A stretch of 64,000 bases of DNA from assembly GCA_963729625.1 (NCBI GenBank), contig CAVSOU010000010.1, positions 224,001 to 288,000 on the forward strand, in the 5' to 3' direction. The position numbers and the translations under genes are program-made. A model generated the notes under the pieces. It was given only the letters and a program-made list of their open reading frames with translations. It searched no databases and was not told the origin of the DNA. The first letter of the stretch is position 1, and each line of letters starts with the position of its first letter. Below, piece by piece: positions 43,546-60,373 of the stretch. Origin of the DNA: an uncultured bacterium (GTDB lineage: Bacteria > Chloroflexota > UBA5177 > JANWHV01).

Positions 43546-43724
43546 CGTGACCTCCAGAGCTGCGTGAAGTGGCATGCATTGTACGGACTCGCCCGCCAAC
43601 CGACGGTATGTCTTTCCGGCCGTGGCGAGCGCCAACCGCTCATGACCAGACCGGAATCGAACCTGGCAAGATAGTGTAGGTGATGGTAGCAAGTTCTGGG
43701 TTGCCAGCCAACGGCGAGGATCAG

Positions 43725-44507
43725 ATGATGCCGGGCGCCGCGTCGAGAGCGGAGGCGATGCAGGCGCTGCTCGGCATCCGCTTCAACGATTCGCAGCTGT
43801 TGCTACAGGCCCTGCTGCATCGCTCTGCCGTGCTGGAGCGTCAACGCGTGCACGGTGCGCTGCCGCTGGTGGCCTCAAACGAGCGCCTGGAATTTCTCGG
43901 CGACGCGGTGCTCAGCATGCTTGTGGCGGAATACGCGTATCAGCATTTTACAGACTACGACGAAGGAAGGCTTACCGAAGTCCGCGCAGCTCTCGTGCGC
44001 CGCTCCACGCTGGCGATTCTTGCCGACGGCCTGGGAATCGCGGAGTTGCTTTATGTTGGGCGGTCAGAGCGCAAGAGCGGCAGCCGAGGAAGGATGACGG
44101 TTCTCGCCGAGGCGCTTGAGGCTGTTGTGGCTGCGGTGTACCTCGACCAGGGTTTGGAAGTCACTCGCCACATCGTATTCAACATGCTCGCGGGTAGAAT
44201 TCCGTACCTCTTGCACAGGGCGGACGCCCTGAATCCCAAATCTCGGCTCCAAGAACTGGCACAGTCGACCATGCGTTTGCTCCCCACCTACGAGCTGCTG
44301 GGCCGCACCGGACCGGCGCATGACAGCCGCTTTACCGTGACCGCGTGGGTTGGCGAGCAGTGTGCGACCGGACACGGTACGTCGAAACGGAGCGCAGAAC
44401 AGCATGCCGCGCAACTGTTGCTTGAGGTAATTGAATCGACTGCGGCTGAATTTCACGAGGCCGTGCACGCACAGGCCGCCCAGCCCGATGGGCATCCCGA
44501 TGGCTGA
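43725..44507 (+). CDS. rnc: Ribonuclease III
   Basis: NERLEFLGDAVL, NPKSRLQE, dsRBD ending SKRSAEQHAA. Confidence 0.96.
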   Translation: MMPGAASRAEAMQALLGIRFNDSQLLLQALLHRSAVLERQRVHGALPLVASNERLEFLGDAVLSMLVAEYAYQHFTDYDEGRLTEVRAALVRRSTLAILADGLGIAELLYVGRSERKSGSRGRMTVLAEALEAVVAAVYLDQGLEVTRHIVFNMLAGRIPYLLHRADALNPKSRLQELAQSTMRLLPTYELLGRTGPAHDSRFTVTAWVGEQCATGHGTSKRSAEQHAAQLLLEVIESTAAEFHEAVHAQAAQPDGHPDG

Positions 44508-45696
44508 CACGCGTGCACGGCGCGAGCGCACGGGATCAGATGATCGTCCGCGCCAGCTCACTCTATTCGACCTGACTGACGAGGCCGAAGCAGCATCCGC
44601 ACCGCTGGCGAAGCGCACCGTGGCGACCGGCACATCGGCTGCGACGGCGCCCGCTGAGTCGCACGAGCGTGATGCGGCGATGGCGTCTCGTGCCGGCCTG
44701 CCAGGCGACTTCGAAAATGACCGGCTGGCAGGACCTTTCAGCGTGACGGCCTCAGCTCCTCGCCCCGGAGCCGCGACGCTACGACCGGCGATCGACGAGT
44801 ACAAGCAGTACCTAGCGGCAATGAACCGATCCAAGCATACGCGCGACAGCTTCGGGCTCGATCTCAAGCTGTTGCTCGAGCACCTCGGCAACGCGCCGCT
44901 TCATGCCATCGGCGAGCGGGATCTGAGATCGTTCATCAGTTGGGTCAGCGTACAACGGGGCAACAGCGCCACGTCAGTGCGGCGAAAGGTGGCAACGCTC
45001 AAGAATTTCTTCGCCTATCTCCGGCGCGAGCGCGCCATACCAACGGATCCTGCCGCGACTTTGATCTATCCAGAGATCTATCCCGCCTTGCCCGAGTTCT
45101 TGGAGGACGACCAGGTCGCGGATCTGCTCGAGGCGGCCGGTGAGCACCTATTTTGGAAAGCGCTCGTGCTCCTCATGCTTGAAACGGGGTTGAAGCGCGA
45201 TGAGGCGGTCGCGCTCGGTCGCACCGATGTGGTCCTGAGCCGCGACGCGCATGCCTCCTATCTCGTCGTACGAGAGACCGAACAGGCCAAACGACTGCGA
45301 TCGCGCAGATTGGACATCGGAGACGACCTGGCCTCGCTTCTCATCGACTTCGTGAACACGCAGCCCGAGCGTGAGCGGTTCTTTGAAGTCTCCGCCCGCG
45401 GGGTCAACTTCATCGTCGAGACATGCGGCAAACGGGCCCATATTGCCACGAAGGCAAACAAGCTCACGCCACAGATCCTGCGAGCGACTTTTGCCGTGCG
45501 TGCGATGCGCGCAATGGTTGCACTAGAGGACGCGCGGCGGAGTGCTGGCGCTGCCGAGTCCGCAGTAAGTGCGATGGCCGACCAGCACGACCTGCAACTG
45601 TTGCGGTTACTTGGCCTGCACGAAGAGCCCGAGTCGGCGAAGAAGTACCGCAAGCTGGTACGCGGCTGGTCGGAGCACACGAGGCTCGGTGGATGA
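44500..45696 (+). CDS. Divergent tyrosine recombinase (XerD-like) with non-canonical active site
   Basis: SAM-like core-binding domain (SVRRKVATLKNFFAYL), LPEFL, ETGLKRDE, TPQILRATFA, LLGL...KKY. Confidence 0.85.
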   Translation: MADTRARRERTGSDDRPRQLTLFDLTDEAEAASAPLAKRTVATGTSAATAPAESHERDAAMASRAGLPGDFENDRLAGPFSVTASAPRPGAATLRPAIDEYKQYLAAMNRSKHTRDSFGLDLKLLLEHLGNAPLHAIGERDLRSFISWVSVQRGNSATSVRRKVATLKNFFAYLRRERAIPTDPAATLIYPEIYPALPEFLEDDQVADLLEAAGEHLFWKALVLLMLETGLKRDEAVALGRTDVVLSRDAHASYLVVRETEQAKRLRSRRLDIGDDLASLLIDFVNTQPERERFFEVSARGVNFIVETCGKRAHIATKANKLTPQILRATFAVRAMRAMVALEDARRSAGAAESAVSAMADQHDLQLLRLLGLHEEPESAKKYRKLVRGWSEHTRLGG

Positions 45697-59323: not shown

Positions 59324-60373
59324 GTGAGTCAGGTGACACACGGCATCGGGGCGCGGAAACGCCCGACTTCGCCAACCGTCCCCTTGAAGCGCGCGGCCAG
59401 TGCCGTCACCACCATCGCGAACGCCCCGAAGGAAGCTAGTGATTCTGGAGCGAATCAGCAGTCGGCGTTGTCCCAGGCCGCTCACGATTTCCTTGTCGAG
59501 CAGCGAGCGCGGCACGGAGGCCACTCCCACAGCTTTCGCGCGCGATCCTCGGACTTGCGTCTACTCGTCGTCTGGGCGGCGAGCCGGAGTATCAGCGAAC
59601 CCGAGCAGTTGACGAGGACGGTCCTTCGCGCCTGGCTCTCAGACCTGCATGAGCTCGGCTACGCCCGAAGCTCAATGGCCCGAATGCTGTCGACGGCACG
59701 CTCATTCATCCGTTTCCGCGAGCTTGGCGGAGCCACAATCGACCGAGCGGCTCTCACGTTGAGCGCGGGGAGGCAGTCGAAGTCTCTCCCCGACGTGTTG
59801 ACAGAACCGCAGGCCGCTCGGCTGATGGATACTCGCGCGAACGATCTGGCAGGTGGTCTCAAGCCACTCCCATTGCGAGACCAAGCGGCCCTCGAGCTGC
59901 TGTACGGCACTGGTATGCGCGCCGCCGAGCTCTGCTCGCTCCGAATGGGTGACGTGGCGCTGGAATCCCGCGAGGTCGTCATCATGGGCAAAGGCTCGAA
60001 GGAGAGGCGCGTGCTGTTTGGTGCGCCCGCTGCGACCGCGGTGCGGGCATACCTTGCCAGCTCCAGACCGCTGCTCGTCGCCAGGGCGCCTGCCCACGAC
60101 ATGCTGCTGGTCAACTGGCGAGGCGGGCCGCTCAGCGTGCGGGGTCTCGCTCTCATCGTGGAAAAGCGAGCACAAGAGACGGGCCTGTCAGGCGGCCTGC
60201 ACCCGCACACCCTGCGGCATTCGTTTGCCACGCATCTGCTGAACGGTGGGGCGGATCTCCGCACAGTCCAGCTCTTGCTCGGGCACGAAAGCCTCGCCAC
60301 CACGCAGAAATACCTCCACGTTGCGGATCCTCGTCTGCACGACCTGTACCATCGTTGCCACCCACGTGCATAA
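59324..60373 (+). CDS. xerC: Tyrosine recombinase XerC
   Basis: Intact R (TGMR), K (GKG), HTLRH, LGH, Y (TQKY); C-terminal HPRA. Confidence 0.88.
   Translation: MSQVTHGIGARKRPTSPTVPLKRAASAVTTIANAPKEASDSGANQQSALSQAAHDFLVEQRARHGGHSHSFRARSSDLRLLVVWAASRSISEPEQLTRTVLRAWLSDLHELGYARSSMARMLSTARSFIRFRELGGATIDRAALTLSAGRQSKSLPDVLTEPQAARLMDTRANDLAGGLKPLPLRDQAALELLYGTGMRAAELCSLRMGDVALESREVVIMGKGSKERRVLFGAPAATAVRAYLASSRPLLVARAPAHDMLLVNWRGGPLSVRGLALIVEKRAQETGLSGGLHPHTLRHSFATHLLNGGADLRTVQLLLGHESLATTQKYLHVADPRLHDLYHRCHPRA

Follow-up and report, generated by a model that had tools for sequence, protein, structure and literature searches.

Tyrosine recombinases of the Xer type combine a SAM-like core-binding domain with a catalytic domain, and the residues of the complete catalytic set (Arg-I, Lys-beta, His-II, Arg-II, His/Trp-III and Tyr) are those that we take to be R-K-H-R-H-Y in XerD. 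In Bacillus subtilis, the unloading of SMC by XerD is reportedly independent of catalysis. Passages of PMC12322038, citing Karaboja 2021, describe XerD as a sequence-specific SMC unloader. The gene considered here occupies positions 44500-45696 on the forward strand of a 64,000-nucleotide stretch of DNA from an uncultured Chloroflexota bacterium (assembly GCA_963729625.1, contig CAVSOU010000010.1, positions 224,001 to 288,000), the whole of which is referred to below as the window. This open reading frame of 398 codons encodes a Xer-like protein, P0001, which represents a conserved, non-mobile, Xer-derived family with a systematically replaced catalytic set and a clamp-binding-type peptide on a flexible arm.

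Clients of the beta sliding clamp (DnaN) carry short peptides with the consensus QL[SD]LF or QxxLF, and those with a terminal motif include Hda (N-terminal QL[SP]LPL), Pol IV, MutS, UmuC and others. The clamp is also used by transposition proteins, namely TnsE of Tn7 and some insertion sequence (IS) transposases. To our knowledge, no clamp client has a tyrosine recombinase fold; full-text literature searches returned neither such a client nor a description of this Xer-like family. In the tyrosine recombinase classification of PMC8138268, the terms 'Chloroflex', 'inactive' and 'non-catalytic' are absent from the main text.

Fold and remodelled catalytic pocket

A profile built from a diverse alignment of relatives (A2) matches 180 of 237 collected proteins to the end of the model, and 160 of these are near full length; residue counts below refer to these 160 relatives. 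The gene and its product comprise the following features:

44500..45696 (+), stop codon included: Xer-like gene (putative pseudo-recombinase P0001, 398 residues), defined by the open reading frame, Pfam domains, 91 homologues and orthologue N-termini
44500..44769 (+): disordered N-terminal extension, residues 1-90 (predicted local distance difference test score, pLDDT, below 60), variable in length and sequence among relatives in the close alignment A1 and in A2
44554..44568 (+): QLTLF, residues 19-23, a beta-clamp-binding-like motif (conservation in A1, N-terminal enrichment, complex model)
44791..45030 (+): core-binding (SAM-like) domain, residues 98-177 (PF02899; confident helices in the AlphaFold2 model)
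45097..45675 (+): catalytic-type domain with remodelled pocket, residues 200-392 (PF00589, Foldseek, profile alignment to XerD and XerA)
45193..45195 (+): K232 at the Arg-I position (TGLK), by alignment to XerD; K in 152 relatives, R in 3
45298..45300 (+): R267 at the position of the catalytic Lys (beta-hairpin), by alignment to XerD; R in 119, K in 36
45472..45483 (+): Q325-I-L-R328, His-II replaced by Gln and Arg-II retained, by alignment to HVLR of XerD; Q in 125, E in 22, H in none; R328 in all 160
45532..45597 (+): helical insert of 22 residues, A345-Q366, ahead of the LGL box (gap in insert-less relatives of A2; model)
45610..45618 (+): L371-G372-L373, equivalent to the LGH box, with Leu in place of His-III; H in none of the relatives, L in 152, V in 4, I in 3
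45646..45648 (+): Y383 at the nucleophile position, by spacing; Y in 131, and L, I, F, C or V in 29

The XerC/D architecture claimed for this protein in an earlier note on the same DNA is confirmed by domain, structure and profile comparisons. P0001 matches Phage_int_SAM_1 (PF02899) at residues 98-177 with 46.8 bits (E 3.7e-12, cut-off 22.3) and Phage_integrase (PF00589) at residues 200-342 with 26.2 bits, slightly below the cut-off of 27.1; it has the fold of the tyrosine recombinase superfamily, a SAM-like core-binding domain followed by a catalytic-type domain. The AlphaFold2 model (31 sequences) has a mean pLDDT of 82.1, with residues 94-392 modelled confidently and residues 1-90 disordered, which agrees with the N-terminal extension of about 90 residues noted before. 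The top Foldseek matches of the model are XerA (E 5.6e-12), lambda integrase, XerH, the Tn1549 integrase and XerD, and the family profile aligns to Escherichia coli XerD (1a0p) at E 3.2e-20 and also to XerA (5hxy). The helical insert of roughly 20 residues described earlier proves to be 22 residues long and to be absent from some relatives. It is modelled within a helical hairpin (helices 324-348 and 353-371), and the spacing between residues 335 and 371 takes a long form (36 residues) in 87 of the 160 relatives and a short form (14 residues) in 54.

P0001 lacks the complete tyrosine recombinase catalytic set. Its motifs are ETGLK (residues 228-232), PQILR (324-328), LGL (371-373) and KKYR (381-384). 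In the profile alignment to 1a0p, K232 pairs with the Arg of TGLRVSEL, R267 with the Lys of GKGNKER and R269 with the Arg that follows it, and Q325 and R328 with the His and Arg of HVLRHAF; Y383, as read from the sequence, stands ten residues past the LGL box, which is the canonical spacing. By alignment to the Xer set R-K-H-R-H-Y, the hexad of P0001 is therefore K-R-Q-R-L-Y (K232-R267-Q325-R328-L373-Y383), and KRQRLY is also the commonest hexad of the family (102 of 160). The earlier note had read TGLK, QILR, LGL and the candidate Tyr of KKY correctly and had missed the Lys-to-Arg change at R267. The residues that it proposed to follow in orthologues, K, Q..R and L, are conserved (152, 125, 160 and 152 of 160, respectively).

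The 29 relatives without the Tyr retain the rest of the signature and, where named, belong to Chloroflexota, including Aggregatilineales. Some genomic members carry S or T at the Arg-I position (L098, L100). A decayed integrase or pseudogene was considered and rejected, because the reading frame is unbroken and conservation extends to the altered residues.

N-terminal motif and modelled docking on DnaN

The QLTLF that the earlier note had placed at 44554-44568 lies, as stated there, in the N-terminal extension, and fits the consensus for a terminal clamp-binding peptide. At least 90% of the rows of alignment A1 keep Q19, L22 and F23, while the linker behind the motif varies freely. Ahead of the first domain, QxxLF occurs in 101 of the 160 relatives and QLxLP in 6; neither is present in 37, and the called N-terminus is shorter than 20 residues in 16. 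Across the family, the 10,564 N-terminal residues contain 101 instances of QxxLF and the 46,785 domain residues contain 7, which makes the motif about 64-fold denser in the arms. The motif starts at a median of residue 13 and is followed by a linker of 56 residues (median; range 18-128). Of the 29 members lacking the Tyr, 16 match a broad motif pattern and 12 the strict QxxLF. Six-frame reading of genomic loci reveals sub-clade variants that retain Q1, L4 and F5, namely QLxLF, QLALPL/F, QPSLF, QPDLF and Q(T/A/S/G)GLF. An N-terminal motif of this type is thus conserved and enriched in the family without being universal, and the four examined members of coded families f8 and f32 lack it.

The motif lies within the protein whichever start is used: the database entry for the window's own protein (P0002, 402 residues) begins four codons earlier, and both starts include it. 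The annotated start matches the N-termini of orthologues. The case that the earlier note had named as speaking against its proposal, a true start downstream of 44568, does not apply, because even relatives with only about 30% identity preserve, as protein, the motif and a start upstream of it.

QL.LF is rare in the window's genome, with 21 instances among the 12,436 open frames of at least 150 residues (3.51 million residues). It is terminal in the Xer-like protein, a UDG-superfamily glycosylase and a helix-hairpin-helix protein, company that would be expected of clamp clients. One further QL.LF, inside a 1301-residue frame (ABC/FHA/PLD protein), was set aside as probably due to chance.

Three proteins encoded outside the window are recorded here in their own right. 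The UDG-superfamily uracil-DNA glycosylase (G000:C10:23140-23838, L091) ends in QLSLF, likely a clamp-binding tail. The protein with helix-hairpin-helix motifs (G000:C11:444981-446456, L092) ends in QLMLFPDFVV and is a candidate clamp client. The DinB homologue of the genome (G000:C10, L083:859-2031) has AQQPLFPLL near its C-terminus, which is QxxLF-like and only suggestive.

The conserved clamp-binding-like motif reported earlier is also docked on DnaN in a complex model, which paired residues 1-45 of P0001 and their alignment with the DnaN of genus-mate G190, for which 32 DnaN sequences were aligned. The scores of the three runs are 0.66, 0.66 and 0.69 and that of the best of three controls is 0.00, a pass that may stem in part from the model's memory of solved structures; 116 of 157 solved complexes attain the mark applied, as do 2 of 215 mismatched pairs. 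At least 68% of contacts are shared between runs, and the pLDDT of the partner is 45-46. The modelled interface comprises residues 15-23 and 25 of P0001 and residues 174, 176-179, 247, 249, 252, 281-283, 285, 330, 354, 356, 370 and 372-377 of DnaN, presumably, by homology with the E. coli beta clamp, the canonical cleft between domains II and III together with the C-terminal tail. The complex model supports, rather than demonstrates, binding of the peptide to DnaN.

Distribution and genomic neighbourhood

A word-indexed homologue search identified 91 proteins at E <=0.001, and those that are named come from Chloroflexota with the exception of one metagenome-assembled genome of Gammaproteobacteria. 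When 1.84 billion representatives were searched exhaustively, 26 clusters at E <=1e-30 were among the 150 matches listed, and a related-locus search with alignment A1 gave 10 loci, all titled Chloroflexota. Look-alike clusters of the Atlas belong to Chloroflexota and Thermomicrobiota, and one distant relative is labelled Dissulfurispiraceae.

When 301 genomes sampled from across the phylum were searched with the A2 profile, 79 of them, the window's own included, matched at E <=2.3e-57 to the end of the model (78 of 297 when four unpublished genomes, among them G226, are left out). Scores are bimodal: the next class, at E 3e-45 or weaker, ends at model position ~279, which is the behaviour of canonical Xer proteins. 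One further genome, G138, contains a fragment. Presence is consistent within coded families (19 of 19 genomes in f8, 6 of 6 in f26, 20 of 21 in f22), and therefore fits vertical descent with losses; the families of the window's own class (f2, f3) show the weak-score class only. These proteins are likely an undescribed, non-cutting chromosome factor conserved in many Chloroflexota. No dedicated Pfam or NCBIfam model matched P0001, and the public annotation of family members as XerC, XerD or integrase is probably misleading.

One metagenomic protein, P0093 (1051 residues), has a Ser/Thr kinase and beta-helix repeats upstream of its Xer-like domain (residues 743-1049). This fusion was not used as a functional clue, being a single case and possibly an artefact of gene calling.

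The neighbouring features of the window that bear on the Xer-like gene are the following:

43680..44507 (+): rnc (RNase III), directly 5' of the Xer-like gene (Pfam Ribonucleas_3_3, 4.7e-31; dsrm, 4.2e-15)
44500..44507 (+): 8-base-pair overlap ATGGCTGA of the Xer-like start codon and the rnc stop codon, read from the sequence; order and overlap are the same in genus-mate G190 (L022)
59324..60373 (+): canonical Xer recombinase, given for context (translation; PF00589 at 1.2e-45, the best PF00589 match of the genome)

The window's genome has eight PF00589 matches, two of which are canonical Xer genes with intact catalytic boxes. The one at 59324-60373, correctly recognised earlier as an intact xerC-like gene, encodes GMR, GKGSKER, HTLRH, LLGH and Y; canonical Xer genes thus coexist with the Xer-like protein.

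The overlap with rnc was also described accurately, the ATG at 44500 preceding the rnc stop TGA at 44505-44507. The surrounding genes are housekeeping genes: truB, ribF, a zinc-ribbon gene and rnc, then coaBC (on the other strand), rpmE and a DUF1385 gene, and farther downstream mfd, followed by the canonical Xer gene. The zinc-ribbon protein (PF09723; 43309-43692, reverse strand) is encoded divergently from rnc and has a C-terminal tail rich in Cys, Gly and Ser (…GGCGSCSGGSCGSCGCH). The interval from 38 to 52 kb of the window is free of tRNA genes, and this and the housekeeping neighbours agree with the statement that no mobile element is nearby. By tblastn, 72,556 plasmid and 50,697 phage records contain no close relatives; they yield only generic recombinase matches of less than 36% identity, none covering 80% of the query. 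P0001 is thus not identified as a mobile-element integrase, given its housekeeping neighbours and the absence of nearby tRNA genes and of close plasmid or phage relatives. A role in a defence system was rejected because PADLOC assigned no family to P0001 or P0117.

The linkage to rnc, which the earlier note presented as coupling, is confined to the window's own genus. Among 40 loci (L009-L048), rnc lies upstream in 6 (L009, L010, L019, L022, L025 and L029), all from genus g1, and the pairs L009/L025 and L010/L029 look like the same genomes counted twice; a functional coupling was accordingly rejected. A conserved neighbourhood was rejected as well, because the flanks differ from lineage to lineage: 40 flanking open reading frames from 20 loci belong to families as varied as MR_MLE, GT4, radical SAM/DUF512, GH113, PMT_2 and Tex.

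The suggested role with SMC or at the terminus is speculation. The scpA gene adjoins the Xer-like gene, in convergent orientation, in one lineage, coded family f47 (L028, G176:C187:177341-178885, and L014:5965-7821), which corresponds to 1 of 15 comparisons in which both genes share a contig; the remaining 14 genomes have the two at least 150 kb apart. Of the 301 genomes, 244 have Smc, and these include lineages that carry the Xer-like family as well as lineages that lack it; rnc-smc synteny is not seen at Xer-like loci. A link to SMC was rejected, because ScpA is adjacent in that single comparison and the presence of Smc is independent of the family. In the window's own assembly (87% complete, 21 contigs), neither smc nor dnaN was found; genus-mates carry smc, and all four carry dnaN, so both genes are most likely missing from the assembly. 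Genomic context gives no functional partner, and the rnc and SMC arguments of the earlier note therefore carry no weight.

Proposed role and comparison with known systems

The reading favoured here, with a probability of roughly 60%, is that P0001 is a non-recombining, DNA-binding pseudo-recombinase, derived from Xer, borne on the chromosome and tethered to the sliding clamp. Vertically inherited, it has kept the two-domain DNA-clamping fold with a pocket remodelled to K-R-Q-R-L-Y, and most likely still binds DNA but neither cuts nor rejoins it. Loss of strand cleavage is suggested by the change of four of six catalytic positions, by the absence of His from both His positions in 160 relatives, and by the dispensability of the Tyr in 29 of these and in a whole sub-clade; retention of DNA binding is suggested by the fold, by Arg-II and by the many basic residues of both domains that are invariant. 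The conserved remodelled set also supports the earlier view of a domesticated, chromosome-borne Xer derivative. QLTLF on its disordered arm is predicted to dock into the peptide-binding cleft of the beta clamp, in which case the protein would concentrate on clamps left on newly replicated DNA. Its possible tasks there include marking or bridging specific sites and modulating XerCD or other chromosome machinery. A more specific version is tentative, at somewhat below even odds: the replisome-tethered pseudo-recombinase would sit on beta clamps behind the fork and recognise, mark or synapse specific chromosomal sites during replication, for example at the terminus or at dif-like sites, or by bridging sister duplexes.

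Several observations weigh against the tethered pseudo-recombinase. The Tyr and Arg-II are retained in most members, the Arg-I and Lys-beta positions are still positively charged, and the set of 160 proteins was seeded from P0001 and over-represents its own type. The motif is missing from the 37 relatives counted above, and four examined loci of families f8 and f32 (L095, L096, L097 and L102) encode short N-termini with no QxxLF, no Tyr and the hexad KKDR[VI]L. If this pattern holds for all 27 sampled genomes of f8 and f32, about a third of the family-bearing genomes are motif-less; in this sub-clade the core fold is kept even without clamp tethering. The complex model relies on the DnaN of G190, since the search of the window's assembly gave no dnaN, and the pass may partly be memory, because clamp-peptide complexes are already solved. 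Finally, the gene neighbourhood provides no functional hint beyond the genus.

Because the Tyr, Arg-II and the positive charges are mostly retained, slow or unusual chemistry is conceivable, and P0001 might be a still-active recombinase or topoisomerase-like enzyme with an unusual pocket (an Arg-I/Lys-beta swap with Arg-II and Tyr) that is recruited to the replisome and, for instance, resolves dimers or catenanes as replication ends. Y383 in 131 and Arg-II in all 160 relatives, Lys at Arg-I and Arg or Lys at Lys-beta in most members, and the canonical ten residues from LGL to the Tyr fit such an enzyme. It is nevertheless unlikely, given that the Tyr is absent from 29 relatives that keep the rest of the signature, that His occurs at neither His position, that some members have S or T at Arg-I, and that the same genome has two canonical Xer genes. 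In Cre, Flp and vaccinia topoisomerase, replacement of Arg-I by Lys and of Lys-beta by Arg is each reported to cripple catalysis. Xer tetramers use inactive protomers structurally, and P0001 could be a non-catalytic partner or regulator of XerC/XerD that fills a structural slot in the synapse at dif, its motif linking dimer resolution to the end of replication. Canonical Xer always co-occurs in the genomes inspected (for example G209, G005, G018, G192, G066, G238, G171 and G264), and relatives conserve the C-terminal helix that follows the Tyr position; linkage to xer is lacking, with the window's canonical Xer gene ~14 kb away beyond unrelated genes, and 222 of the 301 sampled genomes of the phylum do without the family, which makes such a partner quite unlikely.

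A role at the terminus in unloading SMC or as a roadblock, comparable to that of the XerD described in PMC12322038, would suit the lineage in which scpA is adjacent and convergent (G176, L014). The distance to scpA in the other 14 comparisons, the occurrence of Smc with and without the family and the absence of rnc-smc synteny render this very improbable. Most improbable is a QLxLF peptide that binds a partner other than DnaN or is another conserved signal, the docking being an artefact of modelling: although some sub-clades lack the motif, the partner pLDDT is low at 45-46 and memory may have contributed to the pass, the key positions Q1, L4 and F5 fit the clamp consensus across sub-clades (QLxLF, QPSLF, QxGLF, QLxLPL), all three controls scored 0.00, and the other terminal QLxLF peptides of the genome are on DNA-repair proteins.

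A broadly conserved bacterial branch that has no catalytic set and is yet under selection would be a clear case of recombinase domestication in prokaryotes. If the tethering of a pseudo-recombinase to the replisome is true, P0001 would stand for a class of clamp clients not known before. It would also be the first case in bacteria of a tyrosine recombinase domesticated for a dedicated chromosomal task that involves no catalysis. The family would also open a handle on the chromosome biology of Chloroflexota, a large and little-studied phylum.

With XerC and XerD (TIGR02224/TIGR02225; 1a0p), P0001 shares the two-domain architecture, a single-copy chromosomal gene, Arg-II and, in most members, the Tyr. 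It differs from them in four of six catalytic positions (K, R, Q and L), in the disordered arm of about 90 residues with QLTLF and in the 22-residue helical insert, and it coexists with two canonical Xer genes. Its scores lie far below the NCBIfam cut-offs, with 76.4 bits for XerC (TIGR02224; cut-off 335.15), 71.7 bits for XerD (TIGR02225; cut-off 329.6) and 83.6 bits for XerA (NF040815; cut-off 220). Archaeal XerA (5hxy, 4a8e) is thus its best NCBIfam match as well as its best fold match; in contrast to XerA, P0001 comes from a bacterium, has a remodelled active site and carries the N-terminal motif.

In function, B. subtilis XerD, as portrayed in passages of PMC12322038, offers a parallel, being likewise a Xer protein that serves as a site-specific DNA-binding factor and not in recombination. 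It is, however, a canonical and catalytically competent recombinase with a second job, whereas neither genomic position nor phyletic distribution was found to tie the Xer-like family to Smc or ScpA. The resemblance to beta-clamp clients lies in a short Q-x-x-L-F or QLxLPL peptide at the end of the protein on a flexible linker, and the peptide of P0001 is modelled in the cleft of DnaN. TnsE of Tn7 and some IS transposases are likewise recombination-family proteins that are steered to replicating DNA via the clamp; these belong to mobile elements and are active, whereas the Xer-like gene is fixed among housekeeping genes and its product looks inactive.

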